From positions 208,543 through 272,542 of the forward strand of contig CAVRPK010000001.1 of the NCBI GenBank assembly GCA_963723105.1: DNA of 64,000 nucleotides, written 5' to 3'. Shown here piece after piece: positions 1,139 through 37,795 of the stretch (within the stretch, counting starts at the first letter, position 1; every line of letters begins with the position of its first letter). The stretch comes from an uncultured Candidatus Micrarchaeota archaeon. GTDB lineage: Archaea > Micrarchaeota > Micrarchaeia > Anstonellales > Bilamarchaeaceae. Position numbers and translations under genes: made by a program. The notes beneath the pieces are model-generated. The model searched no databases and was not told the DNA's origin. It saw nothing but the letters and a program-made list of their open reading frames with translations.

Positions 1139-1996
1139 TTATTGGCAAAGATGAGTATTTTGATTGCAAACTTCGCCACTTACACAATCATCATCATCAT
1201 TGCAATAGCCAAGCTTGGCATTACAGTAATGAGAGCTCGTACAAACCTGCCAATCGCCACAATCTATATCTGCACCACAACGATCTGCTTCTGGAGTACA
1301 AAGATGAGTTTTCTTGATCTCGCAGTATTCCCAAACATTGCACTCATTGTCACCAGTACAGTATCCTTGCCTTGCAATGCATTTCTTTGAAGAATCATCG
1401 CATTTGGCCCATTTATCGCAATCACCATCGTTTCTACAGAAACCTTTTTTTGGCTCGCAGATATGAGTTTTTAGATTACAAGTCTGCCAGGTTTCACAAT
1501 CACCATCAAGATCGCATTTCCCTTCAAGGGTATAGCATCTTTTACTAATCACATCGCACTTTTCCCATGAATCGCAATCAGTATCAGATACACAGTATCC
1601 AGGTGCAGGGCCGCATTGATGCGTATTTGGGCTGCAGTATTCAAAATCTGGATCACATTGAGAATCTTCATCACAGTATCCAGGTGCTGCCTGACACGCA
1701 TTGGATGCGTCGCAAACCTGCCACATTTCGCAGTTGGCATTAGTACGACAGAAACCCCCCTGGAATTGGCATGTATGAGTACCTGCAACATCACAGACCA
1801 TCAAAGGATCACGTTCAATACAGGGATCATCAGAATCACAATATCCAGCAAGAGTTTCGCATGTAGTGGAAGTAGAATTGCAAAATTGCCAGTTTTGACA
1901 ATCGTCACTATCGCTACAACCAGTAGAACCACGACTGCTCGTACAGCCCACAAAAATCAAAGAAAGGACTATAAGTCCAAATAGGAGAAATCTCAT
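1139..1996 (-). CDS. secreted cysteine-rich lipoprotein built from 10 tandem ~26-aa four-Cys repeats
   Basis: N-terminus MRFLLFGLIVLSLIFVGCTSS (signal peptide plus lipobox-like Cys). Followed by ten repeats of G[YF]C-x3-D-x-C-x2-W-x2-C-x5-6-C. No other domain. Confidence 0.7.
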   Translation of the reverse strand: MRFLLFGLIVLSLIFVGCTSSRGSTGCSDSDDCQNWQFCNSTSTTCETLAGYCDSDDPCIERDPLMVCDVAGTHTCQFQGGFCRTNANCEMWQVCDASNACQAAPGYCDEDSQCDPDFEYCSPNTHQCGPAPGYCVSDTDCDSWEKCDVISKRCYTLEGKCDLDGDCETWQTCNLKTHICEPKKGFCRNDGDCDKWAKCDDSSKKCIARQGYCTGDNECNVWEYCEIKKTHLCTPEADRCGADIDCGDWQVCTSSHYCNAKLGYCNDDDDCVSGEVCNQNTHLCQ

Positions 1997-2713: not shown

Positions 2714-3652
2714 TTAGGAAGCTCTCAATATTACTGTCCAATAGCATTCCCTTCCAGGAGCACCTACAGTAAGTCCAGCAAGATTCAAAGACAATACTGA
2801 AGAGATTGTTGATTCGTCACCACAAGATTGTCCATTGCATACAGCTGAAATACTTCTTAGTGAAAGAAGGCCCGATGGACCAACTACAATAGAAACATGA
2901 ATATCAAGTGTATCTTCAGGACGAATACCAAGGGAAGTACGCAATGAGGATGATGCTATTCTCAAAGAGCTTCCAAGTCTGGATAAAACCTCCCCAGTTC
3001 CAAGCGATGCTGCAAGATCAACCCGATCTGTTGGTGCAACTGCACCAGGACAGGTAAATGCAGAATTAAATCTTGGCGGAAGTTGATCTTCTCCAGCATC
3101 AGGTGGAGCCAATGTTCGAATTACCGCGCCACAATCAACATCACAAAAATGCGAAGACCTTGAATGGCATGATTCTGTTATTCTAATGGTTTCTAGTGAA
3201 TAACCTTCATGCGATACCACTGCCCCATAAACAGTATTTACATCAACTCTTCCATTTCCGCAATGAAAATCAACAGGACAATTTTCTGGGGTTTCTGAAG
3301 GCCTTTCAGTAACGTTCTGAGTCCTAAAGGATGAACTGACAGTTGGAATTGACCATTGAGGTGCTTTAACCTGTCTGATTAAATCTCCGCAATAACCACA
3401 ACTCTCTGGATCAAAAGTAGCTGAATAAGGATCAGCCTCTCCTTTTGCAACTTCGCACAAACGATCTCCTTTTTGTGGGGGGGTTGGACAGGGTCCTGAA
3501 GTATCACATGTCGAAATAGCTGTTGGCTCGGTCTGTAGTGGCTCGGTCTGTGGCTGTTTTTTTCCAGCCATAAATGCAACTCCGATTGCAATACCAACAA
3601 CTGCTGCAGGCACTATGAATTTTGCTCGAATATTACGTTTTGGATTTGTCAT
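2714..3652 (-). CDS. cassette A exported Cys-rich protein 2 (N-terminal TM anchor, paralog of 7094-8026)
   Basis: Start moved to ATG 3652 (MTNPKRN) behind GGTGGA inside the end of the upstream gene. TM anchor FIVPAAVVGIAIGVAFMA. Shares FDPESCGYCGD-IRQ, ENCPVDFHCGNGRVD and the C-terminal domain with 7094-8026 and 3658-5046. Confidence 0.65.
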   Translation of the reverse strand: MTNPKRNIRAKFIVPAAVVGIAIGVAFMAGKKQPQTEPLQTEPTAISTCDTSGPCPTPPQKGDRLCEVAKGEADPYSATFDPESCGYCGDLIRQVKAPQWSIPTVSSSFRTQNVTERPSETPENCPVDFHCGNGRVDVNTVYGAVVSHEGYSLETIRITESCHSRSSHFCDVDCGAVIRTLAPPDAGEDQLPPRFNSAFTCPGAVAPTDRVDLAASLGTGEVLSRLGSSLRIASSSLRTSLGIRPEDTLDIHVSIVVGPSGLLSLRSISAVCNGQSCGDESTISSVLSLNLAGLTVGAPGRECYWTVILRAS

Positions 3653-3657
3653 TAGTA

Positions 3658-5046
3658 TCATCCACCTACTGGAGGCCTCACTCTAACTGGAACAGTTATG
3701 ACACAAGTTTCGTTAGGCGCTCCGGTTGTAACACCGCTTAGATTAAGACCAGTAACTTGAATTACATTTGCTGATGAAGGGCACCCTTGACCGCCGCAAG
3801 ATGCATTTGCACCAAGTAAAGTTGGCACACCAGATGTATCTACGCTTACAGATACAGAAACATCAATTGCAACGCTTGAGACTCCAAGTGCGCTTCTAAG
3901 TTGTCCACCGTTGCCTGTAATAGTGCTTGTGATTCTCTGGACCAGTGTCCCCATACCAGGAACACGATTACCAGGACATGAAGTTACTTTTGTTGGTTGA
4001 ACATCCTCGCATTCACATGAGGTCGTACAGCGTTCTCCAGTACCACATCCAGATGGAGTTGCCGTAGGATCACATTCTTCGCCTGGTTGAATTCTTCCAT
4101 TTCCGCAAACAACAGGATCATCTACAGCAACAGGTGGAGGCGCTGATTTAATGACACAACGGCAAGATCTTGTACAAACCTTGCTAGTTCCGCATGCTAC
4201 TCTTCCAGCTTTGCTGCTTCGATCACATTGTTCTCCTGCAGCTTTATCCCAACTGCCATTTCCACAATTTTGTGGTGGTGGAGGTGCGCATGCTTCAAGA
4301 TTTGGACATGCACAGGGAACTAAGCTTTCAGGGGTACATAGTGGATGTGTTTCTGAAACTGCACAAACAGCTTCATCGTAGTTGACATCTATACGATAAT
4401 CATTATCATCAAGTGAAACAGTTGCAGGATTTGCATGCATCTGCTCGATCTCAGAAGAAGTCCTCCATCTTTCGAATTGAATTGCAGTATCGCCAGTCAT
4501 TCTTATTCTTGAGGTTTTAAGAATTTCATTGCTTCCATCTTCTGCGCGTTCTGCACATGGATGATCAGCAACTTTTTGTATTTGACAATCTGGAGAATTT
4601 TCATCTTCAAGTGGAAGTTTGATTGGTCTCTCTTGATCTGGTGCCCAGCTTCCATCTTCTGCTCTTTTAACATAGTGACTCATAAGATCTGGCACTGGAC
4701 GTCCTTCGCGATCCCTAAGCTTTGCCCGTTCGCTTTGATCATCGCATTGATCATTTCCACGATGGCAATCTTCAAATGAGAAATATGGATTGAATTCTAA
4801 ACACTTGCCATCTTCACTTCTTTTTTGAGTGCCATTGGGATTGAAATTGCATTCATATGCTTCTACTTCCATACAAACACCATCTCCTCGGATTGGCTCT
4901 ACTATTGGCCGAGTTGTATCACATTCTTTTGCAAATAGGAATAAACTAATTCCAGCAACCATAACTGCCGTAGTTGCAATTGATGATGCGTTATTCTTGA
5001 ATTTTCCAAGAGCTCTTTCCTTTAATGATTTTTTTCTAACTTTCAT
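3658..5046 (-). CDS. cassette A exported Cys-rich protein 1 (N-terminal TM anchor, CGNG...E[EQ]CD repeats)
   Basis: Start moved to ATG 5046 (MKVRKKSLKE), 5 nt after AGGTGA. TM anchor IATTAVMVAGISLFLFA. Two CGNG-x6-8-GE[EQ]CD units (CGNGSWDKAAGEQCD, CGNGRIQPGEECD). The C-terminal ~100 aa are shared with 2714-3652 and 7094-8026. Confidence 0.65.
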   Translation of the reverse strand: MKVRKKSLKERALGKFKNNASSIATTAVMVAGISLFLFAKECDTTRPIVEPIRGDGVCMEVEAYECNFNPNGTQKRSEDGKCLEFNPYFSFEDCHRGNDQCDDQSERAKLRDREGRPVPDLMSHYVKRAEDGSWAPDQERPIKLPLEDENSPDCQIQKVADHPCAERAEDGSNEILKTSRIRMTGDTAIQFERWRTSSEIEQMHANPATVSLDDNDYRIDVNYDEAVCAVSETHPLCTPESLVPCACPNLEACAPPPPQNCGNGSWDKAAGEQCDRSSKAGRVACGTSKVCTRSCRCVIKSAPPPVAVDDPVVCGNGRIQPGEECDPTATPSGCGTGERCTTSCECEDVQPTKVTSCPGNRVPGMGTLVQRITSTITGNGGQLRSALGVSSVAIDVSVSVSVDTSGVPTLLGANASCGGQGCPSSANVIQVTGLNLSGVTTGAPNETCVITVPVRVRPPVGG

Positions 5047-5051
5047 AAATG

Positions 5052-6968
5052 TCACCTTGTTTGTATTCCGCTTTCTGCTAGTATGAGTGCATAATCATCT
5101 TCAAGATCTGCAATAAATTGTCTTTGCTGATCTGATGGAACAGAAGTTTCATATTTGATATCTGAAAGTCTTTCTCGAAGTGCACGGTTTTTGTACGCCC
5201 CGCCATCTTTTTCAAATACTTCCGCCATTTTTCTAGAAAATAATTTATCTGAGAGTAAAAGTGCTTTGAGTTGTGTTTTTCTTCGTTCTGGATGATCGAT
5301 ATAAACTACAAGTTGAGCAAGTCTTTTTCCAACTACCACTCTCTCAACCTGATCAATAACAGTTGGAAGTTCTCTTCGGACCCTTTCATCAAGCCTCGCA
5401 TCATCCATAAGATCATTCCAAATGATTTCATGTCTGAATAAGACATCAACAACATCAAAAAGTACTTCATCGGTTTTCATAACTGATTTGATATTTGCAA
5501 GCTGAAGACCAAGATCAGTGGATGTTCTTTTGATCTGCGTGAATCTTTGCACAATATAATCGCATGCTTCCTCTTCTTCTTTGGAAAGATCAGAACGTCT
5601 TTGCAAACGAACAAGTTCTTTTGTAACTTTTCTTCTTCGAATAAGCTCTGTTGCTGCAAGAGTAAGTGCAAGTATTCCATAAGGAATTGCCTTATCTGAA
5701 TGTTCTGGAAGCTCGAATGTCGGAAGATGAAGTGTTTGTACCCAGAGTTTTGTAAATCCATTTAGCATTGTTTGATAAGCGCCAGTTAGATGTGCTGCAG
5801 TAGAGAAACCACCAACACTAAAAACTGCCCAAGTCATTGGACTTGAAATCCTGTTTTTGAACCATCCTTTGAAAGACCATTTAGGTTCTTGTTTTTGTGG
5901 ACTTGAAGTAGACTTTGGAACTTCCAGAAGTACTGGCTCTTGAGGTTCCTGAACAATACTTTGAGGCTCTTCAACATTATTTGGTTTACCTGGAATAGTA
6001 GCCTTGGAATCTTTTTGCGAAAGTTCAAGTGAAGGAACTGCAGGCATATCAGAAGTTCGCACACTTCTCATTTCATCCTGAATAACATTTGCTTGAGAGT
6101 GTTGTTTTGCTGCCTTTCCATATGCAGTAACCAGCCCTCTTAAAATAAGTAATCGATTAACGTAAATTTCCTGAGGCTCCATCTCAGATTCGTTCTTTTT
6201 TGATTTTACAGATTCTTCAATTGTACTGAGCCTGGCCTCGCCAAATCGAGCAACAAGTTTTTTGACTTCTGCTGCATAGCGAACTTTTCCGCGCTCGAAT
6301 TTTTCTTTTGAGGAATCAGCTGAGTCCCTAAGACCATTGATAAAATCAGAAAGATCTCCTGTAGCCAGAGTAAATTCTCCACCTTCAACTACGCTTGTTG
6401 GCTGATGTGAAACTGGACCATTGTCAACTACCCTGCCCATAGATGGAGGCAGAGGAGGCGACCGTGAACGTTTTTTAGGAGGAGGGGGTGGTGGAGGGAT
6501 AGAACGCCTTCTTTTCAAGTCAGGCACTGGAGGAGGCTTGGGTTTGTTTTGCTGCCCATTTACCATCCTTGTAGCATCCTCTTGTACAGGAGATGATTGT
6601 GCAGGCTTTATTTCGAATAAAGGACCAAGAAGATCTCGCTGTGCAAGTACAACTCCAAGTTCTAGAAGATGGCTGAATAATTGCTGTGAGTTTGAAACGT
6701 TGTTTGCAGCACATTCTGATCTTGCAAATTCAAGAAGAACTCCGGCATCCATTTCAAAAAGTTGTTCTTGACTAGGTACTGGAGAATTTTGACCAATATC
6801 CTGAGGAGGAGGAGCATCTAAAACAGGGATTACACTACTTGTTGGTTTTTGTGGCTTGGATCTTAAAGTTTCAACAGCCCCATCTTTATTGAATATGCTT
6901 GTTGCTTCTGATTGGGCCCTCTCAAGTTTTTGCCTTCGCTCCTCTCTACTAAGTCGTTTTTTTGCCAT
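5052..6968 (-). CDS. cassette A TM-hairpin scaffold protein (basic N-module, Pro-rich region, helical cytoplasmic C-domain)
   Basis: Start at ATG 6968 (MAKKRLSREERRQKLERAQ...). The N-terminal ~35 aa and the two-helix TM hairpin are paralogous to 8036-9208. Contains a PPPPPPPKKRSRSPPLPP tract. Confidence 0.65.
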   Translation of the reverse strand: MAKKRLSREERRQKLERAQSEATSIFNKDGAVETLRSKPQKPTSSVIPVLDAPPPQDIGQNSPVPSQEQLFEMDAGVLLEFARSECAANNVSNSQQLFSHLLELGVVLAQRDLLGPLFEIKPAQSSPVQEDATRMVNGQQNKPKPPPVPDLKRRRSIPPPPPPPKKRSRSPPLPPSMGRVVDNGPVSHQPTSVVEGGEFTLATGDLSDFINGLRDSADSSKEKFERGKVRYAAEVKKLVARFGEARLSTIEESVKSKKNESEMEPQEIYVNRLLILRGLVTAYGKAAKQHSQANVIQDEMRSVRTSDMPAVPSLELSQKDSKATIPGKPNNVEEPQSIVQEPQEPVLLEVPKSTSSPQKQEPKWSFKGWFKNRISSPMTWAVFSVGGFSTAAHLTGAYQTMLNGFTKLWVQTLHLPTFELPEHSDKAIPYGILALTLAATELIRRRKVTKELVRLQRRSDLSKEEEEACDYIVQRFTQIKRTSTDLGLQLANIKSVMKTDEVLFDVVDVLFRHEIIWNDLMDDARLDERVRRELPTVIDQVERVVVGKRLAQLVVYIDHPERRKTQLKALLLSDKLFSRKMAEVFEKDGGAYKNRALRERLSDIKYETSVPSDQQRQFIADLEDDYALILAESGIQTR

Positions 6969-7093
6969 TACACCCACTCAATAATATGTTTGAATATATA
7001 TAATTTTGTGGGAACTGTTTTTAAATGTGTTGTTTTAGAAAAAAAGATGTAAAGAAAAGGGATATTTTATAAGATTAAAAAATATAAAAAAAA

Positions 7094-8026
7094 TTATCTA
7101 AGTTTCACAGGTATAGAAAGAGTACATGATGATTCTGCACCAGCAACAGTTACTCCAGCAAGTGATAAACCAGCAACGCTAGCTGGATTTATACTATTTG
7201 GACATCCTTGTCCTCCGCAACTTGCTGAAGAACCTGCCAATGTAGGAACACCAGAAGAGCTAATTCTTACAGAGACCACAACTGTGACTGGAACAGATCC
7301 AACACCAGCTGCGCTCTTAATAGCACCACTGCTGGAAGAAATTGAAGATGAAACTCTGCTAATCAAATCACCTGCACCAGATCTAACACCAGCACCACAT
7401 GGGCCGCCAGGTGTTTCCCTTGGTGGCCTGACTGCTACCCCTGTTCCTGCGCCTTTAGCTGGAGTTCTTGCAGATCCAGCTCCCCTTGCGTTGCCACCTT
7501 TAGTTGGGCAATCGGCTTCACAATAATTATCAGAGGATACTCTGCATGATTCAGCAGGAATTGTTTTAGTTCCAAGTGCATAAGTGGCATTTTCACCTGT
7601 TCCGGTTTGAACAATTGCACCATAAACTTTAGCACGATTTTGAACCTTACCATCACCGCAAGTAAAATCAACAGGACAGTTTTCTACTGTTTCAAAGGAT
7701 TGTCTGATTCCATCACCGCAGAATCCGCAGCTTTCTGGATCCCAGTTTTCAGAAACCACATCGTGTTCTCCTTTTGTAAGTTCACAATTATTATCGCCTA
7801 CTGCTGGTTCTGCAGCACAGGTAACTGCTGTTGGACACTCTGGAGGAGGCGTTATTGGACCTTCTGTTTGTGGTCCGCAGCTTCTGAAAAATAATGTTGC
7901 AACCATTGCTGCAGTTGCAAGACCTGCTCCTGCTCCAAATTTCCATCCAAGGCGTTTTGCCTTGCTCTTTTTATCATCAACTCTGCTAGATGCAGGACTT
8001 CCGACTGTTTGTTTTTGTTCTGCCAT
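7094..8026 (-). CDS. cassette B exported Cys-rich protein (N-terminal TM anchor)
   Basis: Start at ATG 8026 (MAEQKQTV), 4 nt after GGTGAT. TM anchor GAGAGLATAAMVATLFF. Motifs WDPESCGFCGDGIRQ and ENCPVDFTCGDGKVQ. C-terminal SASCGGQGCPNSINPASVAGLSLAGVTVAGAESSC is nearly identical in pattern to 3658-5046. Confidence 0.65.
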   Translation of the reverse strand: MAEQKQTVGSPASSRVDDKKSKAKRLGWKFGAGAGLATAAMVATLFFRSCGPQTEGPITPPPECPTAVTCAAEPAVGDNNCELTKGEHDVVSENWDPESCGFCGDGIRQSFETVENCPVDFTCGDGKVQNRAKVYGAIVQTGTGENATYALGTKTIPAESCRVSSDNYCEADCPTKGGNARGAGSARTPAKGAGTGVAVRPPRETPGGPCGAGVRSGAGDLISRVSSSISSSSGAIKSAAGVGSVPVTVVVSVRISSSGVPTLAGSSASCGGQGCPNSINPASVAGLSLAGVTVAGAESSCTLSIPVKLR

Positions 8027-8035
8027 AATAATCAC

Positions 8036-9208
8036 CTACTCTTGTTGAGAGACCTCCGCAACATTAAGTTCTTTTCTTTGATTTCTTTTTTCTAAAAATG
8101 ACCATGTACTAAGACCAAGCTGAACTACTGCATATGTAGCTACTGCAACTTTGTGCCATCCCTGAAGACCATTTGCAAGATATGGGCTAGTCCATGCAAC
8201 AGCAGATGTTGCTGCAGCAAATAAACCTGCCATAGTAAGCTCAGGAAGGTAATACCTTACATTTCCAAGGAATTTTCCAACTGCAGTTGCTTTATCAATT
8301 GCATGTGCAGTTGTTGTTTTTCCACCATCGATTGTGCAGTAAACACCATCACCATCTTTGTATTCAAAAGTTAGTTTGAGAGGCCCGTCTTTTGATGGAA
8401 CTTCAACTTCTCTTTTTTGTGATGGTGCAATAGTTAATTCTACAAGAGTATTTTTACTTGAATCAAGAACAGTAAGTGCTTTCTTTCCGCTCAGTGAACC
8501 TTCGAATCTAACTTGAACACCAGAACGTAAAGAAGTAAGCTCAGCTTCAACTTCAGTTTTTACATAAACTGCTTTTGATCCTGTTTTTGCTTTTGGTTCT
8601 GCTGCTGTTGAGATTATAACTGATGGCTCTGCTGCTTGTGGAGCTGGAAAACTAGAATGCTCTAATGGTTCTGGGAAAAATTGTTCTTCTGGAGTTAGTG
8701 CTGGTTCCGGTGCAAGTGCTGCTGGAGTCTCCTGCTTTGTTGCTGAAGAATCAGGTGATTGTTCTGGTTCTTGTGCAGGTGCTGCTGGAGTCTCTTGTCT
8801 TGTTTCTGAACTAGAAGGTGCTGGTTCTGGATCTGGTGATGACGATGGAGGCGGACTGCTTCCAAGAATATCATCAAGCAAACTTCCACTACCCGAACTT
8901 GGGGCAGCTGGTGCTGGATCATCTAATACTGCAGAACCTGACACGATCTGACTATCAGAAAGATCAATAGTTTCTTCTTTTGCAACTGGAGAAGAATCAA
9001 CAGGTTTTTCTGCTGCATCCTCTCTTTGATCATTTGATTCTTCATGAACTGGAGATGATTTAGGCTTTGGCTCTACAACTGGTTTTGGATCGTCTTTTTG
9101 TGGTGGCTCAACTGCGCCTTTTCCGCTGAATAGGCCAGCAGCATTTTCCTGTGCTGCTCTTAGTTTTTCTGCTCTCTCAGCTCTACTTAATCGTTTTTTC
9201 TTTGCCAT
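8036..9208 (-). CDS. cassette B TM-hairpin scaffold protein (basic N-module, Pro/Ser-rich repeats, beta-rich domain, C-terminal TM hairpin)
   Basis: MAKKKRLSRAERAEKLRAAQENAAGLFSGKGAVE parallels the N-terminus of 5052-6968. Two C-terminal hydrophobic helices. TAATG stop/start overlap with the upstream gene. Confidence 0.65.
   Translation of the reverse strand: MAKKKRLSRAERAEKLRAAQENAAGLFSGKGAVEPPQKDDPKPVVEPKPKSSPVHEESNDQREDAAEKPVDSSPVAKEETIDLSDSQIVSGSAVLDDPAPAAPSSGSGSLLDDILGSSPPPSSSPDPEPAPSSSETRQETPAAPAQEPEQSPDSSATKQETPAALAPEPALTPEEQFFPEPLEHSSFPAPQAAEPSVIISTAAEPKAKTGSKAVYVKTEVEAELTSLRSGVQVRFEGSLSGKKALTVLDSSKNTLVELTIAPSQKREVEVPSKDGPLKLTFEYKDGDGVYCTIDGGKTTTAHAIDKATAVGKFLGNVRYYLPELTMAGLFAAATSAVAWTSPYLANGLQGWHKVAVATYAVVQLGLSTWSFLEKRNQRKELNVAEVSQQE
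8701..8830. repeat. imperfect tandem repeat (~57-63 nt period, ~2.2 copies) inside 8036-9208
   Basis: ctggttccggtgcaagtgctgctggagtctcctgctttgttgctgaag... recurs as ctggttcttgtgcaggtgctgctggagtctcttgtcttgtttctgaac... It encodes the repeated (R/K)QETPAA(P/L)A(Q/P)EPE. Confidence 0.55.
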
Positions 9209-10509
9209 TATGAATCACCTGTTTGTGCTTCGTAGGATTTTTTCACGAAATCCTGTGCAAGTCTTATTACACGCTCTGAATATTGTTCAACAAACTTGAC
9301 GCATTCTTCACGTTCTTTAGTATCTATACTAGAATTTTGTTGAAGTTCATTAAAGAATTGTCCGTAATGCAATGATGAAATTTGATCTTGGACATAATCA
9401 TTCTGATTTTCAACAATCAATTTAAGTGAACCAAGAACACGTTGTTCTCCATACTGATCTGCAAATTCAGAAAGATTTGGAGATTCTCCTTGCAGAAATT
9501 CAACTGCAAGTCTACAAACGACATCTTCATTAATTGAAACCATACCACCAATACTTTCTCCACCAGGACCGGTTAATTCTTCAAGCATTTCGCCCTGCTC
9601 ATCAACATCTTCACGAAGGGCATTGAATACTTCAGAAGATACTGCCTGGCTCTCAAGAACTGCTGTTCTGTTTTCAATAGTACCCAAAGATACTGAAAGG
9701 CCTTTTTCGCCATCAATAAGATCGCGAATTCCTTTAAGATCGCTTTCAAGACCATCGACGGATGTTTTTAAGCCTTCAACTTTGGCTACCCTGTCTTTAA
9801 GTTCTTCAACTTCTTGGTCTGGCTCTTCATCTTCCTCTTCATCTTCGCCTAGGAAAGCATTTTCAAGACCAACAATCTTTTTTCCTAGTTCTTCTAATTT
9901 TGCTTCAATAGGAGCTAAAAGTTTTGTTAGTGCTGCTTGGACTACTGATTGTACAGCATCCATATCTAGCTTATCCCCATCTTCTTCTGGTTCCTCTACT
10001 TTTGGAGTTGCTCCAGTTGGATACCTTGGAGGCTTTACAGGGGCAGCTGGAATAGGAGGGGTAGATTCTTCTTCATCAGGAGTTTGAGAAAGATCTGCTT
10101 CTTCAGTTAGTGGTTCAACAAGATCATTATCAACTGCATCGATTGCTTCCTGAAGTTCAGCGAGAACCTGATCAGCATCTTCGGAAACTGCATCAACATC
10201 AGAACCTTCAAGTGCCTCAGCAAGACCTGGATCTTCTCCAAGGCCGTTTCCGCTATCAAGGTCTACTTCGCTTGTTTGCGCAGCCATAACTTCTGCTGCT
10301 GGAGGCCTTGATCTCTTTGCTAGTGCCTTTTGTTCGTCAACATCAGCTTCTCTAGTTAGATCCTTATCCCCTGGATTATTTCCTGGATTTGGCCCACAAC
10401 CAGCTCGAGGTTCCTCTGGTTTTGGATCAGGTAATTTTGGAGATGAAGGTGCTTCTTCTTTTTTCTCAGCTCCGCCTTGGAATCGTTTTCTTAGGTTTCT
10501 TAAAGCCAT
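9208..10509 (-). CDS. cassette B acidic coiled-coil protein (cytoplasmic, no TM)
   Basis: 433 aa, very D/E-rich with heptad-like stretches (LEELGKKIVGLENAF, VEELKDRVAKVEGLKTSVDGLESDLKGIRDL). 1-nt stop/start overlaps on both sides. Confidence 0.6.
   Translation of the reverse strand: MALRNLRKRFQGGAEKKEEAPSSPKLPDPKPEEPRAGCGPNPGNNPGDKDLTREADVDEQKALAKRSRPPAAEVMAAQTSEVDLDSGNGLGEDPGLAEALEGSDVDAVSEDADQVLAELQEAIDAVDNDLVEPLTEEADLSQTPDEEESTPPIPAAPVKPPRYPTGATPKVEEPEEDGDKLDMDAVQSVVQAALTKLLAPIEAKLEELGKKIVGLENAFLGEDEEEDEEPDQEVEELKDRVAKVEGLKTSVDGLESDLKGIRDLIDGEKGLSVSLGTIENRTAVLESQAVSSEVFNALREDVDEQGEMLEELTGPGGESIGGMVSINEDVVCRLAVEFLQGESPNLSEFADQYGEQRVLGSLKLIVENQNDYVQDQISSLHYGQFFNELQQNSSIDTKEREECVKFVEQYSERVIRLAQDFVKKSYEAQTGDS
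9210..9224 (-). promoter_or_regulatory. SD/initiation cassette AAACAGGTGATTCAT at the 9208 gene junction
   Basis: Minus-strand AAACAGGTGATTCATAATGGC contains GGTGA, the TAA stop of 9208-10509 and the ATG of 8036-9208. The same 15-mer recurs at 16260-16274. Confidence 0.55.
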
Positions 10510-11231
10510 TATGAATCTCCTCCTTTATCTCCTTCTTTTGGTTTTGGAGCTTCTTGTAATTCAAAGCCGCCTTGCTCTAATGTATATATAATATCTCTAA
10601 ATAGAGCTTCGGCTTCTGGTGCATCGACTTTTAGTTCCTTAACATCAGTTTCAACTTTTGCAATTCTCTCCTGGAATCTTGCAAGTGTATGTCCGAAATT
10701 ACTGACAGACTTAACCAAATGAGAAATTGCATCACCACCAGTTATTTGCTGTGCTTCTTCACCGACTTTTCGAACTACTTTGATTGTAAGTGCTTTGAGT
10801 AGACCAGCAACAGATTCTTTTGCAGAGTCTGCGGTTTCTTTTGCTGCAGTTGATTCAGATGTAACTTTTGCAACATCATCAGCCATTGCAGATGCCTTGT
10901 CAGAAGTTTCTTCTGCTGATCTTTGTGCTGCTGCTGCTGCTTGTTTTGCCTCTCCTGCGCTTGCTGCTGCAGTTGATGCAGATTTTTCTGCTGCTGAAGC
11001 TTTTCCTGCTGCTGCAGATGCTTCATTAGAAACAGAATCAAGTCTTTCCCCAAGTCTTTGCTCAAGGGATTCTCGACCAGTTTTAGCGCCGTTTTCGACG
11101 ATTCTCAAACCTTCCATTAAGGTTTGACCCAAACGTCCACCCATTAATTTGGTAACGTTTTCAGAATGTGCTGCAAGTGCACGACTTTGTGTAATAGTTT
11201 CCTTTTTAGTTTTTTGTTCCGCCAAACTCAT
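10509..11231 (-). CDS. cassette B Ala-rich helical protein (cytoplasmic, first gene of cassette)
   Basis: ~240 aa. Long low-complexity helical region (SAAAGKASAAEKSASTAAASAGEAKQAAAAAQRSAEE...). No TM segment and no family recognised. ATG 11231 or GTG 11234 are both possible starts. Confidence 0.6.
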   Translation of the reverse strand: MSLAEQKTKKETITQSRALAAHSENVTKLMGGRLGQTLMEGLRIVENGAKTGRESLEQRLGERLDSVSNEASAAAGKASAAEKSASTAAASAGEAKQAAAAAQRSAEETSDKASAMADDVAKVTSESTAAKETADSAKESVAGLLKALTIKVVRKVGEEAQQITGGDAISHLVKSVSNFGHTLARFQERIAKVETDVKELKVDAPEAEALFRDIIYTLEQGGFELQEAPKPKEGDKGGDS

Positions 11232-11319
11232 CACCTCGATGTAAATAATATAAAGTGTTTTAATCTATACATGTGTGGGATAGTATATTTAAATGTTTCG
11301 ATAGATAAACAAACGTGGT

Positions 11320-14300
11320 TCATGATAAATCCTCCGAATCAGAGCCTAAAGCCAAAGTTACATACTTCTTATCAGCAGAATACCTGTCCAAGACCACGGT
11401 TTTGTCATCATTATGTCCTTTGATCTGCTCGGAATCCGAACCATTGGATGGATCTGGAGGAATTGATGAGGTATATCTTCCTTTTTGTTTCCTTGATTCT
11501 GCAAGTCTTAGCATAGCATGACCAGCATCATCCAAATCAGGACATTGATCAATTAATCCGACTATTTCCTTGTCCAATATAAGATCGCTGATTCCGTCAG
11601 AAGATAAAAAGTCTACATCCCCATCGACTAATTTGAATCCATTAATATCAATAAATGTTGAAACAGTACCAAGTGCAGAAACAATAACATTGGTTGGGAA
11701 CTTCCCATTCGGCTCATGTCCCAGTGACTTCATCATATAAGCCATGTTATGAATTGGACATTGGAAAACAACTTCTCTATCTCGAATAATTTTGTATTCG
11801 CTATCACCAGCATGGATCCCATAGAACTGATTCCCAATTCTGAGAGTAATAGTTGCAGTTGTGCCCATATCATTTTCCTGATTTGTGCTTTTTGGATCGC
11901 GTTTCTTTGAAATTTGCTCAAAGACTACAGCCAGATCAGCAATAACAACTGCACGGCGCGCTTCTTCAGGAGTCTGAATCCAGCCTGCGCTTGCACAAAG
12001 TTCTACTGTTTCCCTTGCAACAGTGCTTGCAATCTGGCCATTGCTCATGTACCCAGGAACAGTACCCTTCATAGTGTCGTGTCCACCCATGCCATCAAAT
12101 ACTGCCTTCAAACGAATAACCTGGCCTGTTGACAAAGTGATCTCTACGCCAGTAAAACAATCATCATTTGTCTCGCAGTAGTCATCAGTGACATGCAATC
12201 TTTTTCTGCCATTATCACCATCAACCTGAAGTGTTTGGAATTTAGGAGCAGTAAGCCCTGCAACTTTAACAAAATCTACCTTTACTGCAAGTCTTGGGCC
12301 TCCTAGAAATTCTAGTAGAATATTAAATTCTTCATTCTTGGACACTGTATCCCTAAGGTTTTTTGGATCGCCTGCAATTTCAAAAAGTCTCAAAAGCTGA
12401 GGATAATACTCTTTACTATCTTCACTATCGCCAGCATATGTTTTGTTCAAAATCGCACTACCAAAAGCACTGATATTATCTTGAGGAATTTCTGCAATAG
12501 GTTTTTCATAAATTGCTTCGAGTATTTTTGTATCTGCTTCAGCATAACTCATTGGTTTAACAAATCTTAAACGATGGGCAAAATCAGAAACAGAAAACAT
12601 GTTCACAGAACCGTTCATCCATTGCCTTTGTCTTTGCTCTTTTGTTGAAGTGAACCATTTGTATGCAAATGCATTCAATATGGAATATTCGTTAGCATCC
12701 CTCCAGAAATATGCATTGCGTCTTAGTTTTTTTCTAAATGTAGTAACAGCTTCAATATTTACAAAGTCCTGCGAAGTCATTTGACTGGGATCCTTATTTA
12801 GAATAAATGAAAGAATCATGAGATTTTCTGATGAAAGTCGATGATATGGTGAAGCTTTTGATGTGACCATGGATTGGGAAAGTGAAATGATATTGAAATC
12901 ATCGAGCAAAGTTTGTTCCCAGTAACTCAGCAGCTCTGCAGGTTCTCCTCTGGTCCAAATTCCAAAACCAGTAATGTGTTTTCCAGTAACTTCAGAAGCC
13001 TGAATTCCAAAAAGACCTGCAACCATGTCTCTTTGAACTGGAGAAAGGTTTGCAGGATTTGTTATTGCACGCTCCTTTTCGTCTGGAGATGGCAGCTTAA
13101 GTGAAAACGTTTGGTATAGTGAGGCTTTGGCTTCCCGAAATGCCTTAAGGTTGGCTTTGAAATCTTCATGAGGCCAAACTGAGGCAATGTAGTTCTGCAT
13201 ACGAAGCTCACGAACTCCAGGATCCATTGTTCTGAACTTTTCAAGATCATCTGCAGTGCAATCGGTTTGATAGAGTGCTTTTGTAATCAGAATTTTTTGA
13301 TGAGGTTGCAACCTTTGGAAAATGGTTTGATCGTCTTCTACAGGTGGCTGGTCAAATACGGAAGATATTGGCTCTGCAGCCTGCGGTGGCTGCAGCGGCT
13401 CTGGAACAACTGCCGGACGTGCCTGGACTGATGGTGGAACTTGATCTGGAAGCATTGCAGTTGATTTCTGGCCAGATGCTTCCTCGCTTGCATTAACAAG
13501 ACCTACTGCAAGAGGAATAAGATTTGAAAGTTCTGGATTGTCCTTAAGTGATTCAACTGCCTTGGCATAAACAGGTGGAATTGATGGATCGACTGGAGAG
13601 CCAGAGCGGACAGTGAGTAGCATTTGAACTTGTTCTGCGGATTTTGTGTACTCTGAATTAAGACCAAGATAAAGGATCAAGGTTCTCGCAACTCTTCTTA
13701 TGTTAACATTTCTAGGACTTTCTACTCCACCAATCTTACGGGGGAAACTTTGATTCAGAGCTTTTTCAAGATCATCATTAATACCAACGTTTGGAAGATC
13801 GAAAACCAATTCTGCTGAAACATCTTCAGAAACTTTTGATGGAGGTGGAGTTGTTGGAGCTTCTGATGGAAGCTCTAGCCATCCCATAACTATTTTGTTT
13901 GAAGGAGTAACCTCCGGATGAGTAATCCGTTCACTTGAGGGAACAGCAGGTTCATCAAATTCAGCTCCTACATCAATTTCTACACCTTCTGGCCAATCTA
14001 CTTCAGTTGGATGGGGTTCAGGAGCACCAGCTTCTCCTAAAACTGCTTCAAGCGGAGTTCCGGGTTTGCTTCCTTTATCAGTGCGCTCAGAGTCAATCCA
14101 TTGATGAAGATCAAATTCAGGTTCAGTAGTTTCTTCATCCAGACTTAAGTCTGGCACAGGTTGAACTAACTGAACTTCGCGCGCTTCAACATCCGCAGCT
14201 TCAACAGGAGGCTCAAAATGAAGATCATCCAAAGGATCAGCACTTGGTTCTTCAGAAGGCTCACGTAGTTCAGCTACTTGCATTCCATCAAGATATGCAA

Positions 14301-16260
14301 TCGAAGGAGCCTCCCATCCAGTTACAAGATGAACACGACTTGTGTTTGGATCAACAGAAAATTCAAAATATAATGCATCCTGAGTTATCTCATCTGAAAG
14401 ATCAGGATCATCAAAAGCAATGATAAGCTTTGTATCCTGATCATAATAACCGCAAATTTCTTCTGGAAGAGTTCCATTGCCCCATCCACCCATAACATGA
14501 TTTCTGAAAATAGCAGGCCCGTTCTTGAGCAAAATCAATGCATTTTCAAGAGTTTCTGAAGAAGGCAATTCATCTTCAAAATGAGTAGTAATGAAAGACG
14601 GATCTGTTGATTTCATAGTATCTAAAACCGCTTCATATTCAACTCGCTCTACTGGAGTAGGAAATTCTGGATAGACATCAGAAATCATTCCCATTCCATG
14701 GGATATGCTTACAAGTGTTTTTGCCATTCGCACAGTACCAGCATGGGAATAGTCATGACGCAATGATGCAACAGATTTTTTGTAAACATCAGGAACATCC
14801 TTGTATGAGATATTGGAAAGTGAATATGTTTTCAGAGTTCTTGCCACTCTTTTGATTAGCTGGGAGTTTCGAACATCGGACCCTGGAAGGAGTGATTCAA
14901 ATTCAGCATCATAATCTTCAACATGTGGGAATGGAAATGAAAAATCAAGTCTTGATTTTGGTGGAGATGATGCCCGAACCGGAGATGATTTAGAAATGGG
15001 AGGAGGGCGTTCAGTGGAAATTGCCTTGTATGATGCTCGCATCTCATCAATAACATCCAGTGCAAGTTGAAGTTCGCTATATTTGGAACCGTGTAGTTCT
15101 ACTAATTGGGCAAGGCGTTTTACTTTTGATGATGTAAGTGAAGAGGAAATGCGTTCAGCTTTTACTGCTCCGTGATATTCGGCTAGAGTCTCAATTGCAG
15201 CCTCAAGATCCTCAACTGCAACAGGTATTGCTAGTTCTTCGAGTAGTTCCAGAGGCTTGGACATCAGCTCTTTAATGTGATCATTGAGAGCTTCAATTTC
15301 TAAGGAAACTTTCAAAGCAGCATCCAATCTTGGAGTATGTTTTAGTTGAGTCATGCGTCTTTCAACAAAACCCTCTTTTGTTAGATCACCAGAAACAGGA
15401 TTTTGTAGCCGGTATTCGTAAATGTCAAGCACGTCTCTGGCATTTGAATAATCAGTAAGAACTTGGGCTCTGGCAGATTCATCAAGGATCTGTGGAATTC
15501 TGGATTCAATCCAGCGCAAATCAGGAAGCAATTCCAGTGCGAGAGTAAATGGAGCAGTTTTGGAATTATCTTCCTTTAGTGCCTTTTTAAAAATCGGAAG
15601 TCCGATGTACATGAAATTAAGTGGTGGTACCGATGCCACACCTCCTTTGCTATCTTCTGAATTCGGATCAGCCTGGTGATATAGAAGCATATCATTTGCC
15701 GATTCAATATCAGCTTTTGCCGAAGCACGCAATTCTTCAACAGATACTTCAGACGAAGATCTGGATAATTCAATAAAATGGAGATTGAGATCAAGTTCTT
15801 CAAAAGCAATTTTAAGCTCTGTTGAGCGATCAGATTTTATTGCAGCTTTTTTGAAATTTGGATTTGCAAGAATATTCATTAGAAGACGTTCTTTTTGTGG
15901 AGTTACTGTATCAGGTATTGGAGCATCAGGATTTGCAGCCATTTTTTCAGCTTCAATGACCAGACCAATTGCAAATGTACGCTGCTGATCACTATAATCT
16001 CTGCCAGGTAATTGAGGATGAGTATGTCTAAAATCACCACCTGGACGCGATACGATATTTGTCTCGTTTTCAAGTTCAGGAGATGTTGAAAATTTGATTA
16101 TAGAAATTTTTGGAGCTTCAAAATAATACTGTACTGGAAAGGATCTTCTGATTAAAGATCTTGCAGTTGCTTCAGGAGAGGTGATCCGGGACCTTAAACT
16201 TCTCAGAGATACATTTGGTTTAGTTGGAAAATTGCCGGTTGATGAGTTCCTCTCGCCCAA
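11320..16260 (-). CDS. giant (~1646 aa) cytoplasmic protein with C-terminal PP2C (PPM) Ser/Thr phosphatase domain
   Basis: The C-terminal ~300 aa carry PPM motifs AVFDGMGGHD, GTTATITL...GIHAGDSEY, LSSDGISDLI, DDKTVVL. No TM segment. Internal repeat I[KR]RVARTL. Start set to TTG 16260..16258, 4 nt after GGTGA. The longer track ORF (to 16410) runs into a tRNA gene. Confidence 0.75.
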   Translation of the reverse strand: MGERNSSTGNFPTKPNVSLRSLRSRITSPEATARSLIRRSFPVQYYFEAPKISIIKFSTSPELENETNIVSRPGGDFRHTHPQLPGRDYSDQQRTFAIGLVIEAEKMAANPDAPIPDTVTPQKERLLMNILANPNFKKAAIKSDRSTELKIAFEELDLNLHFIELSRSSSEVSVEELRASAKADIESANDMLLYHQADPNSEDSKGGVASVPPLNFMYIGLPIFKKALKEDNSKTAPFTLALELLPDLRWIESRIPQILDESARAQVLTDYSNARDVLDIYEYRLQNPVSGDLTKEGFVERRMTQLKHTPRLDAALKVSLEIEALNDHIKELMSKPLELLEELAIPVAVEDLEAAIETLAEYHGAVKAERISSSLTSSKVKRLAQLVELHGSKYSELQLALDVIDEMRASYKAISTERPPPISKSSPVRASSPPKSRLDFSFPFPHVEDYDAEFESLLPGSDVRNSQLIKRVARTLKTYSLSNISYKDVPDVYKKSVASLRHDYSHAGTVRMAKTLVSISHGMGMISDVYPEFPTPVERVEYEAVLDTMKSTDPSFITTHFEDELPSSETLENALILLKNGPAIFRNHVMGGWGNGTLPEEICGYYDQDTKLIIAFDDPDLSDEITQDALYFEFSVDPNTSRVHLVTGWEAPSIAYLDGMQVAELREPSEEPSADPLDDLHFEPPVEAADVEAREVQLVQPVPDLSLDEETTEPEFDLHQWIDSERTDKGSKPGTPLEAVLGEAGAPEPHPTEVDWPEGVEIDVGAEFDEPAVPSSERITHPEVTPSNKIVMGWLELPSEAPTTPPPSKVSEDVSAELVFDLPNVGINDDLEKALNQSFPRKIGGVESPRNVNIRRVARTLILYLGLNSEYTKSAEQVQMLLTVRSGSPVDPSIPPVYAKAVESLKDNPELSNLIPLAVGLVNASEEASGQKSTAMLPDQVPPSVQARPAVVPEPLQPPQAAEPISSVFDQPPVEDDQTIFQRLQPHQKILITKALYQTDCTADDLEKFRTMDPGVRELRMQNYIASVWPHEDFKANLKAFREAKASLYQTFSLKLPSPDEKERAITNPANLSPVQRDMVAGLFGIQASEVTGKHITGFGIWTRGEPAELLSYWEQTLLDDFNIISLSQSMVTSKASPYHRLSSENLMILSFILNKDPSQMTSQDFVNIEAVTTFRKKLRRNAYFWRDANEYSILNAFAYKWFTSTKEQRQRQWMNGSVNMFSVSDFAHRLRFVKPMSYAEADTKILEAIYEKPIAEIPQDNISAFGSAILNKTYAGDSEDSKEYYPQLLRLFEIAGDPKNLRDTVSKNEEFNILLEFLGGPRLAVKVDFVKVAGLTAPKFQTLQVDGDNGRKRLHVTDDYCETNDDCFTGVEITLSTGQVIRLKAVFDGMGGHDTMKGTVPGYMSNGQIASTVARETVELCASAGWIQTPEEARRAVVIADLAVVFEQISKKRDPKSTNQENDMGTTATITLRIGNQFYGIHAGDSEYKIIRDREVVFQCPIHNMAYMMKSLGHEPNGKFPTNVIVSALGTVSTFIDINGFKLVDGDVDFLSSDGISDLILDKEIVGLIDQCPDLDDAGHAMLRLAESRKQKGRYTSSIPPDPSNGSDSEQIKGHNDDKTVVLDRYSADKKYVTLALGSDSEDLS

Positions 16261-16274
16261 TGAATCACCTGTTT
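16260..16274 (-). promoter_or_regulatory. SD/initiation cassette AAACAGGTGATTCAT in front of the PP2C giant gene
   Basis: Minus-strand GAAACAGGTGATTCATTGGGCG. 15 nt identical to 9210-9224. Preceded by a TATA-like gtatatatgtatag. Confidence 0.5.
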
Positions 16275-16392
16275 CTATACATATATACTTGTGTAAGTAG
16301 GATTTATAAACCGTTGTGTGTATTTGTGCCCACAACTGTATTAACATTAAACTGCAGGGTTTTTCAATATTTCTCAAAGGAACAATAATGGT

Positions 16393-16580
16393 GGGCTTGT
16401 AGCTCAGCAAACTTTTGGAAAAAGTTTGATCAAAACTGACTTACTAAAAGTTCGAGCAATAGTAGAGCGCTCCGTTCGCAAAAACTTTTTGGAAATGTCC
16501 AAAAAATTTAGGAAATCGGAGAGGCCGGGGGTGCGACAGCTATAAATTTGATAAAATAGCCGCAGATCCCCCCAAGTCCA
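16393..16580 (+). tRNA. tRNA-Ala(CGC) gene interrupted by three insertions (D-loop, anticodon loop 37/38, T-loop)
   Basis: All four stems pair perfectly across the insertions. Acceptor GGGCUUG/CAAGUCC with G3:U70 and discriminator A. D stem GCUC (16402-05)/GAGC (16465-68). Anticodon stem CUCCG (16470-74)/CGGAG (16517-21) with loop UUCGCA. T stem GGGGG (16527-31)/CCCCC (16568-72). The spliced model is 75 nt. Confidence 0.7.
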
Positions 16581-16646
16581 TATTTCCCAAGAAGGGAATT
16601 GGTTTATATTGATTTTGTAGCACTTTTGATTCAAACTGATGATTCT

Positions 16647-19417: not shown

Positions 19418-19448
19418 CTTATAAATACTATGAAACATAAAGTACAAC

Positions 19449-21077: not shown

Positions 21078-21102
21078 AAAATCTAATTGGATAAATTATC
21101 TC

Positions 21103-30293: not shown

Positions 30294-30294
30294 T

Positions 30295-33186: not shown

Positions 33187-33324
33187 GCCAAAATATCAGA
33201 GGTAACAATAAAAGGGCTTGTGGCTGTGGGAGTGATAGCTAAGGTCTGTGATTACAGAAAATTTTGAAAAAGCTTTAATAGTTTTATACTATTTAATATT
33301 TGTTAAATAGTTTATGGTGAATAA

Positions 33325-34404: not shown

Positions 34405-34412
34405 TTTTTTCC

Positions 34413-37655: not shown

Positions 37656-37795
37656 GGTGTTCACGGACCTTTTAGTCTTATATAAATTTTATATACCTTA
37701 TGGGGGGAACAACGAAAATGATAGTTAGAACTGATTATTTTCGCAGAAATTAGAAACAGGCAAGCAATTAAATTTCTAGCATGCAAGCTCTTTGT

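Follow-up and report, generated by a model that had tools for sequence, protein, structure and literature searches.

Seven consecutive genes on the chromosome of an uncultured archaeon of the Candidatus Micrarchaeota (DPANN) raise the question of whether they encode a single machine and, if they do, what that machine is for. The genes lie on the minus strand at positions 2714-11234 of a 64,000-nucleotide stretch (GenBank assembly GCA_963723105.1, contig CAVRPK010000001.1, positions 208,543 to 272,542), hereafter called the window, and we refer to them as cassette B (B2, B3, B4 and B5) and cassette A (A1, A2 and A3). An earlier note, made from the DNA letters alone, had described two tandem paralogous operons, each with a scaffold protein bearing a membrane hairpin followed by anchored, Cys-rich ectodomain proteins, and had suggested a surface adhesion or contact apparatus that a neighboring phosphatase and kinase might control. 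By comparing the locus with its relatives in other genomes, we arrived at a different reading, which we hold tentatively and at a little less than even confidence: the seven genes may encode one vertically inherited, Micrarchaeota-specific, membrane-spanning complex under Ser/Thr phospho-control, more likely an organizer of the cell's own envelope than a variable host adhesin.

Gene order, junctions and distribution of the cluster

We found that the cluster is embedded in a larger block whose order (giant PP2C gene, B2, B3, B4, B5, a gap of ~100 nucleotides (nt), A1, A2, A3, HAD and DUF5885) recurs in at least 13 distinct genomes and is kept while A1 identity drops to ~20%. The expectation of a conserved unit in archaeal metagenome-assembled genomes (MAGs) was therefore borne out by the gene-neighborhood search, which gave this one rigid block. 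The comparison drew on 19 loci (L001-L019) collected by scanning GTDB genomes, one for each species, and by contig look-ups; the scan used the pattern CPVDF[TAH]CG[DN] only, so the distribution is under-sampled. Locus maps were built from open reading frames (ORFs) and phmmer mapping, plus the called genes of L017-L019. The block is vertically inherited and deeply conserved, and its outer flanks vary, with SecDF in the window and in L001 and L004, and VIT1 in L017.

Relatives of the encoded proteins are few and come from one phylum wherever their source is named. B5 has only 15 homologs among 5.8e9 clustered proteins, and the source-named ones are from Candidatus Micrarchaeota. For A1, an exhaustive HMMER search of 1.84e9 sequences gave 41 representative clusters of 145-760 residues (most of them 440-760), and the organism-named members of this family are from Micrarchaeota or Micrarchaeia. 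A word-indexed search with the A1 ortholog profile returned the same four close relatives only, probably because polyproline words saturated its candidate list. When compared with close relatives, all seven genes have ratios of nonsynonymous to synonymous substitution (dN/dS) of 0.14-0.46, versus 0.06-0.10 for neighboring housekeeping genes. Such purifying selection on all seven indicates that they are real genes.

The ORFs and their junctions confirmed the arrangement of seven minus-strand genes in two coupled cassettes, with coordinates identical to those of the earlier note (Table 1). Read base by base, the B2/B3 and B3/B4 junctions are 1-nt overlaps (TAATG). B4 and B5 directly abut, or are separated by 9 nt when B5 starts at its internal ATG, and the A1/A2 and A2/A3 junctions are 4-nt overlaps that become 5-nt gaps with the refined ATGs. 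For B5 and A2, the true start is most likely this ATG, three codons inside the longest ORF, and the same is probably the case for A3; the refined B5 and A2 starts have AGGTGA(T) at a suitable distance on their 5' side. Shine-Dalgarno (SD) sequences lie inside the preceding genes, as had been claimed (GGAGGAGAT for B3 and GGTGAT for B4), and the start of B2 has an upstream GAGGTGAT SD together with a TATA-like AT-rich region.

One consequence of this packing is a pitfall for anyone looking for protein motifs where genes are so closely coupled. The tails of B2 and B3 (window 10509-10525 and 9208-9225, and their orthologs in L001-L019) end in 'GGDS', 'TGDS' or 'GGDA', which we rejected as a protein motif because the SD of the following gene is translated there in frame.

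The only interruption is the gap between B5 and A1, where an oligo-T run after B5 is followed, ~25-40 nt ahead of the start of A1, by a TATA-like AT-rich element; L001, L004, L007, L008, L017 and L019 have a gap of ~90-120 nt at the equivalent position. It is a probable terminator or attenuator combined with a promoter of cassette A's own. From this layout we infer three putative transcription units, namely the giant PP2C gene, B2-B5 and A1-A3.

Table 1. Coordinates of the seven cluster genes and of associated features in the window
Feature	Position	Strand	Description
DUF5885 lipoprotein	1139-1996	-	lipobox FVGC; 41 Cys; about ten tandem 4-Cys repeats; Pfam 40.1 vs 33.2 bits
HAD-type hydrolase, TIGR02253	2020-2685	-	184.4 vs cutoff of 169.75 bits; no SD, not translationally coupled
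A3	2714-3661	-	315 amino acids; refined ATG 3652
A2	3658-5055	-	465 amino acids; probably 462 from ATG 5046
A1	5052-6968	-	638 amino acids
Intergenic gap	6969-7093	-	125 nt between B5 and A1; sole sizeable gap in the cluster
B5	7094-8035	-	313 amino acids; probably 310 from ATG 8026
B4	8036-9208	-	390 amino acids
B3	9208-10509	-	433 amino acids
B2	10509-11234	-	241 amino acids
Giant PP2C protein	11320-16410	-	acidic, cytoplasmic; 1696 amino acids from a TTG start (start uncertain); first gene of the conserved block
PknB/Stk1-like receptor Ser/Thr kinase	19449-21077	+	transmembrane segment, extracellular PEGA domain

The fixed position of the block bears on whether it could be an integrated virus, a mobile element or a defense island, which we regard as very improbable. 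All seven genes are ORFans, and B2 gives weak matches to a PHROG 'tail fiber' family and to a PADLOC coiled-coil family, as such an origin might predict; however, these matches are sub-threshold, Ala-rich coiled-coil noise, and the block keeps its chromosomal position between housekeeping flanks in every genome. Pfam scans of the neighboring ORFs gave no integrase- or transposase-type match, the ectodomain family has no relative in 2.9 million IMG/VR contigs, and the A1 model has no structural neighbor in BFVD. The window is ~40% GC throughout, with no compositional island, and its gene content (thermosome, SRP54, PolB, DNA ligase, NurA, Nre and SecDF among others) marks it as an unremarkable piece of archaeal chromosome. 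In the cluster region, neither Rfam nor tRNA scans gave a match, and the sole tRNA of the window lies ~40 kb away.

Ectodomain proteins, hairpin scaffolds and the soluble proteins B2 and B3

Anchored, Cys-rich proteins were correctly placed by the earlier note, two in cassette A and one in cassette B, with Cys counts, anchors and paralogy in agreement. A3, A2 and B5 contain 14, 29 and 15 cysteines, respectively, compared with 0-3 in each of the remaining four proteins. In all-against-all BLASTP and phmmer comparisons against a small local database, B5 and A3 are paralogous along their full length (E 4.5e-35), and the last ~100 residues of A2 match the C-termini of B5 and A3 (E 1e-13 to 3e-18). 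This common alpha/beta domain (hereafter the C-domain) spans residues 210-313 of B5, ~359-460 of A2 and ~202-314 of A3. In every related genome, searches with its hidden Markov model (HMM) placed it at the very C-terminal end of each of the three ectodomain proteins, with no other match in the window.

The three proteins also have the same layout: a short basic N-terminal tail, a single hydrophobic anchor (mean Kyte-Doolittle hydropathy 1.93 across the family, at ~32-50 in B5), a Cys-rich module, a basic low-complexity linker and the C-domain. By the positive-inside rule, this fits a prediction of type-II anchored proteins with their Cys-rich parts facing outward. The family alignment of the Cys-rich module has invariant cysteines and 'CGDG / CP.D..CG.G' motifs, which B5 carries as 'CGDG...E..CP.D..CGDG', and A2 has two tandem 'CGNG...GE(E/Q)CD...C..C.C' modules at ~264-350. 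N-glycosylation sequon density in the cluster proteins gave no signal usable for surface exposure. Solo paralogs of the Cys-rich ectodomain proteins occur outside the cluster at L013:9941-10792 and L015:9890-11158, where the genes around them are unrelated housekeeping genes; in one case the main cluster lies ~30 kb away on a shared 542-kb contig.

In the AlphaFold2 model of B5, built from 16 sequences, only the C-domain is confident, with a predicted local distance difference test score (pLDDT) of ~80, and it folds as a helical hairpin on a four-stranded sheet. A Foldseek search of this model against the PDB gave no match at E<=0.001. The top match was the TonB C-terminal domain, which we rejected (E 0.54, probability 0.21, TM-scores 0.16/0.38), as we did a TonB_N match of B4 (17 vs 33 bits). 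Like TonB and TolA, the ectodomain proteins are anchored near the N-terminus and have a Pro-rich or low-complexity linker that leads to a small alpha/beta domain at the C-terminus, but ExbB/ExbD and TolQ/TolR genes are absent, no outer membrane exists, and TonB lacks the large disulfide-rich module. The closest resemblance at the level of motifs is to the Myxococcus-type cysteine-rich acidic repeat (TIGR02232), given the 'CGNG...GE(E/Q)CD' units of A2 and the 'CGDG' motifs of B5 and A3. This assignment also failed, with A2 at 11.6 vs 20.8 bits (E 0.19) and no match for B5 or A3; in contrast to the repeat family, the spacing in A2 is degenerate, and the remaining ectodomain and the C-domain are unrelated.

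The likeness that the earlier note saw between the scaffold proteins A1 and B4 is real in part. It stands for the N-terminal module, to which their alignment is confined (residues ~3-43, E 1e-5 and 6e-6), and for the two-helix hairpin present in both, but it does not extend to the rest: hhalign of the two families gave only 14-30% probability, over the second transmembrane helix (TM2) and the following basic stretch only, leaving full-length homology unsupported. The proposed paralogy of the two operons thus holds for the ectodomain genes, by BLASTP, phmmer and HMM, and only weakly for the scaffolds, which share a peptide of ~40 residues and the same layout.

AlphaFold2 modeled A1 from a 34-sequence alignment with a mean pLDDT of 75.9. 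An N-terminal basic helix (8-27) leads into a disordered region, followed by a helical domain at 62-120 and a helical bundle at 193-305, between which (~122-190) lie a conserved 'DATR' motif and a polyproline/basic stretch. From 305 onward come another disordered region, the membrane hairpin (helices 377-395 and 424-459 with a conserved loop between them) and an all-helical C-terminal domain at 460-633. Each of the three helical domains has a pLDDT >90, and none has a structural neighbor, with Foldseek giving nothing in the PDB or BFVD at E<0.2 for the whole model. Over 34 homologs, mean Kyte-Doolittle values are 1.33 and 1.71 for the two hydrophobic segments, and the 15 residues after TM2 carry a net charge of +4.7, which supports a predicted hairpin with both termini inside. 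B4 consists of the N-terminal basic peptide, a Pro/Ser/Ala-rich disordered linker of ~170 residues, a beta-rich part (~205-305), the hairpin (~321-372; family-wide hydropathy 1.68 and 1.77) and a short charged tail.

Bilobed membrane hairpins with both termini on one side are known from chlamydial Inc proteins and from hairpins of the reticulon/REEP type. The scaffolds are analogous to these in having two close, moderately hydrophobic helices followed by helical or coiled-coil cytoplasmic domains; unlike them, they are set in another biological context, show no homology to them, and have genes paired with those of exported partners.

The A1 family has no Pfam match in any of its 34 members and no PDB sequence match with an ortholog profile. 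Two A1 orthologs (P0020 and P0060) carry the JGI name 'HD-GYP domain-containing protein (c-di-GMP phosphodiesterase class II)'. We consider this name unsupported, finding no Pfam HD match in the 34 members, no invariant His/Asp pattern and no PDB Foldseek match for the C-terminal domain; the name is probably an annotation artifact, and one that could propagate. Two loci depart from the usual composition. In the B3 ortholog at L001:7216-8865, residues ~184-222 form an insertion like A1 helical domain 1 (hmmsearch E 4e-4; domain i-E 0.02), which hints at domain exchange between cluster components. The locus L009 (10924-14406), from a MAG labeled 'Candidatus ainarchaeum sp.', lacks A3, and its A1 lacks helical domain 2; if this single case is a true co-loss, A1 domain 2 may work with A3.

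B2 and B3 are soluble proteins. The Ala-rich nature of B2 (17.4% Ala, zero Cys) and the acidity of B3 (net charge -59) were confirmed, and their coiled-coil character is suggested by composition and by below-threshold family matches, so that B2 is probably a coiled-coil protein. Its only coiled-coil matches are below threshold: Alanine_zipper (21.4 bits vs a cutoff of 23.1), SMC and Rad50. We considered an alanine-zipper lipoprotein of the Lpp/OprI type for B2 and rejected it on these Pfam bits, on an NCBIfam score of 17.3 vs 43 bits and on the absence of cysteine, and hence of a lipobox. A PspA/ESCRT-III-like identity was likewise rejected in a sequence-level comparison, PspA_IM30 and Snf7 being absent from the Pfam matches even at E<=1 and PDB matches being coiled-coil noise only. 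B3 starts with a basic peptide, continues through a disordered acidic/Pro-rich region and a central coiled-coil-like stretch (~180-300), and has a conserved C-terminal domain (~315-425); Pfam and PDB searches with it gave coiled-coil noise only. Profile comparisons of B3 with A1 and of B2 with B3 found no relationship.

That none of the seven could be matched to a named family or machine, as the earlier note had stated, agrees with our profile, PDB and Foldseek searches, which gave no confident match. When the seven proteins and 69 orthologs were scanned singly against Pfam, NCBIfam, PHROGs and PADLOC, all stayed below the curated thresholds, and PDB sequence searches with ortholog profiles returned nothing beyond coiled-coil noise. 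There was no S-layer, archaellum, type IV pilus, Sec-accessory or type IV secretion system-like family match for any of the seven, the only FlaI/VirB11-like ATPase being encoded 10 kb away in an operon with secDF and a kinase gene. In the literature, we found no description of the seven-gene cluster. Within the reach of our tools, nothing among the described families or machines is related to the cluster, and the block is an uncharacterized, phylum-specific envelope module of ten genes.

What ties the two cassettes together beyond gene order is a pair of co-evolving N-terminal peptides. Over the first ~35 residues in 10 genomes, the mean Smith-Waterman score is 46.9 between B4 and A1 of the same genome, compared with 25.7 between B4 and A1 of different genomes and 29-30 between orthologs (permutation p~5e-5 for the within-genome likeness). 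For example, the pair reads MAKKKRLSRAERAEKL and MAKKRLSREERRQKL in the window, MGSLRDRVKKNVGKPAS and MGSLRDRVKGKAGASKG in L019, and MALKIKKGGKG and MALKVRKNGG in L016, and B3 opens with a looser version of the same peptide. Recent gene conversion is an unlikely cause because the 5' ends of A1 and B4 in the window have a DNA identity of only ~60-65%. The simplest reading is that the B4 and A1 peptides dock onto one common, fast-evolving partner, and their co-evolution argues that cassettes A and B are functionally linked.

These observations also speak to the view that there is no single machine, in which lineage-specific ORFans have been kept together by slow rearrangement and the cassettes and B2/B3 have unrelated roles, for instance as separate receptors. 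The housekeeping neighbors (HAD, the DUF5885 protein and endonuclease IV) are equally syntenic, the gap with its probable terminator and promoter divides the cluster, and A1 and B4 have little in common past ~40 residues. Nevertheless, we consider this view unlikely, since stop and start codons overlap inside each cassette, paralogous ectodomain genes with a common terminal domain are found in both, the N-terminal peptides co-evolve across the cassettes, and the order of the genes survives both a fall to ~20% identity and changes in the outer flanks.

Phosphatase and kinase linkage and the working of a proposed complex

The link to a neighboring phosphatase and kinase was upheld at the level of gene neighborhoods, where it came out stronger than the earlier note had supposed, with the control itself being a proposal. 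An ortholog of the giant PP2C gene stands directly upstream of the cluster in L001, L004, L007, L008, L009, L010, L016, L017 and L019, and a PP2C gene is upstream in every genome in which that flank was recovered. The C-terminus of the giant protein (~1398-1640) is a PP2C domain of the Stp1/PstP type, with the DGMGGH and SDG motifs intact in the translation. NCBIfam Stp1_PP2C matches residues 1414-1640 at E 3.5e-17, under the 230-bit cutoff of the full-length equivalog as expected for a fused domain; the Pfam PP2C match is marginal (19.5 bits vs a cutoff of 20.3), and PDB matches are to Stp1 (2PK0, E 1.1e-6) and also to PstP. We presume the giant protein to be a regulator or platform of the cluster. 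In L003 (1-5563), the most divergent block, three consecutive PP2C-domain genes (>=220, 586 and 830-861 residues) replace the giant gene.

A PknB-like kinase gene adjoins the block in at least seven genomes (L001, L007, L008, L010, L014, L017 and L019), and in most relatives it lies just 3' of the DUF5885 gene on the opposite strand. The window's own kinase has the features of a Hanks-type receptor Ser/Thr kinase, with Pfam Pkinase at 179.8 vs 31.7 bits, PEGA at 23.3 vs 20.8 bits and a hydrophobic segment at 394-412. It is not a PknB equivalog, since it scores 251 vs 450 bits with NCBIfam PknB_PASTA_kin (E 3e-74) and has no PASTA match. We regard it as the candidate cognate kinase of the cluster.

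In Firmicutes and Actinobacteria, PknB/StkP kinases and PstP/PhpP (Stp1) phosphatases control envelope and division proteins such as MapZ, DivIVA/Wag31, GpsB and CwsA/CrgA. Similar to these modules, a receptor kinase with an extracellular sensor and a PP2C of the Stp1/PstP type flank genes for coiled-coil and membrane proteins, and the cytoplasmic parts of the block's membrane proteins include long stretches that are disordered and Ser/Thr/Pro-rich; true homology links the PP2C and kinase domains themselves to those of bacterial PknB and PstP. The differences are as clear: the host is archaeal, the kinase has PEGA instead of PASTA, the phosphatase is the tail of a 1696-residue protein, the seven proteins show no sequence or fold likeness to known substrates, and hairpin adaptors with Cys-rich type-II ectodomains have no counterpart in PknB/PstP systems.

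This linkage could be taken further, to a signaling hub in which the ectodomains are ligand sensors and the hairpin and coiled-coil proteins are adaptors or substrates that relay to the kinase and the giant PP2C. The invariant PP2C linkage and frequent receptor-kinase linkage point that way, as do the long disordered linkers with the polyproline/basic motifs typical of docking regions and the short basic cytoplasmic tails of the ectodomain proteins. We think a hub of this sort quite unlikely, however, as no output domain (HTH, cyclase, histidine kinase or FHA) was recognized in any of the seven, and their large, structural-looking helical and coiled-coil domains are heavy for a sensor.

In the envelope complex that we tentatively favor, the predicted topologies would place the hairpin adaptors B4 and A1 in the membrane such that each has its two ends on the cytoplasmic side. 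Translational coupling would give stoichiometric synthesis of B4 with B5 and of A1 with A2 and A3, and the adaptors may pair in the membrane with these co-translated type-II partners. Outside the cell, the shared C-domain of ~100 residues could let the three ectodomains assemble mutually or bind one conserved extracellular target, for example the cell's own S-layer or wall. Inside, the N-terminal peptides would dock A1, B4 and perhaps B3 onto one fast-evolving cytoplasmic partner, which may be B2/B3, the giant PP2C protein or both. Judging from synteny and from the analogy with PknB/StkP and PstP/PhpP, the kinase and PP2C might then switch assembly by phosphorylating the Ser/Thr/Pro-rich linkers. 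The role would be directed at the cell itself: the complex may organize or anchor that cell's envelope, or label a particular site, for example the division plane.

We favor a self-directed role on the grounds that no other parts are as conserved as the ectodomains, which are single-copy. Identity across genomes is 33-53% for the ectodomain proteins and 18-41% for A1, B2 and B3, and the lowest dN/dS values are those of A2 and A3 (0.14-0.16). The label of adhesion or contact apparatus is therefore somewhat disfavored: the ectodomains, best conserved, are strictly one-to-one in the clusters, and it is the cytoplasmic proteins that diverge fastest, the opposite of the pattern in variable host adhesins. 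Under that label, the Cys-rich ectodomains would bind the surface of a host or partner cell while the cytoplasmic platform anchors or signals, as in a docking structure or intercellular bridge of DPANN archaea. The DPANN lifestyle agrees with this, as do the confinement of the cluster to Micrarchaeota-type genomes, the faster evolution of the seven genes relative to their housekeeping neighbors and the solo ectodomain paralogs. A further pointer comes from the cultivated Micrarchaeote ARM-1, in which cryo-electron tomography showed an envelope 'docking platform', whose components are unidentified, and cell-cell tubes (PMC11329633). Against it, the ectodomains are the slowest-evolving parts, with invariant Cys scaffolds and strict 1:1:1 orthology, we saw no copy-number expansion or hypervariable region, and Pfam scans detected no adhesin-type domain in the cluster proteins. 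We judge a contact apparatus to be on the unlikely side, though it is the alternative that we take most seriously.

Several points weigh against the envelope complex that we favor. Regional synteny extends to HAD, DUF5885 and endonuclease IV, and gene order cannot alone prove a functional unit. The hairpin of the window's own A1 is weakly hydrophobic (Kyte-Doolittle 0.94/1.07), the Cys-rich module of B5 was modeled by AlphaFold2 at low confidence, and the block contains no gene for division, the S-layer or wall synthesis. In the window, the kinase gene is not adjacent to the cluster, with SecF and SecD standing between them, and the analogy to PknB/PstP control of envelope proteins is drawn from what is established in bacteria and not from homology. 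Everything past topology and synteny is inference.

A bolder version is that the block encodes a kind of trans-envelope organelle not recognized before, specific to Micrarchaeota and made of novel folds throughout, with the hairpin adaptors, the disulfide-rich type-II ectodomains and their shared C-domain, a coiled-coil platform in the cytoplasm and the giant PP2C protein as a scaffold, and switched by eukaryote-like Ser/Thr phosphorylation. As a DPANN-side structure that makes or receives connections between cells, it could even be the docking platform or the cell-cell tubes; we would call this doubtful. The molecular basis of envelope building, division and cell connection in DPANN archaea is largely obscure, and most of their lineage-specific genes are unannotated. 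What the block offers is tangible: about ten genes, spread across the phylum, whose topology, paralogy and kinase/phosphatase linkage are defined. Its N-terminal peptides, co-evolving within each genome, are a clear example of a pattern that points to a specific docking interaction. Should the genes turn out to encode a structure for contact or bridging, or a new organizer of division or of the envelope, they would open a long-standing black box of DPANN cell biology; if they encode a routine structural membrane complex, dozens of MAGs would still gain a useful annotation.

Neighboring genes in the window

On the downstream side, the HAD-type hydrolase gene occupies the identical position in every locus that reaches that far, and its functional link to the cluster is unproven. 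The DUF5885 lipoprotein gene is always two genes downstream, and its product is 62-69% identical across genomes, far above the seven cluster proteins; it is possibly an extracellular partner.

Diverging from the giant PP2C gene, secF, secD, the PknB-like kinase gene and the gene of an 853-residue VirB11/TadA/FlaI-like ATPase run head to tail at 16599-23664 (+), with gaps of 0-32 nt. The ATPase has a long N-terminal extension, and it is unusual for Sec accessory proteins to share an operon with a receptor kinase and a secretion-type ATPase.

Farther into the window, three large proteins (795, 984 and 1083 residues) with Beta_helix/NosD and CarboxypepD_reg matches are encoded at 27954-37664 and are likely surface proteins. 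Two of these ORFs overlap by ~110 nt as called, and one start is probably wrong. At 57162-58484 (+) lies a Mur-ligase-like gene (Mur_ligase_M plus Mur_ligase_C), adjoining the gene of a 421-residue protein with weak Ig-like matches.

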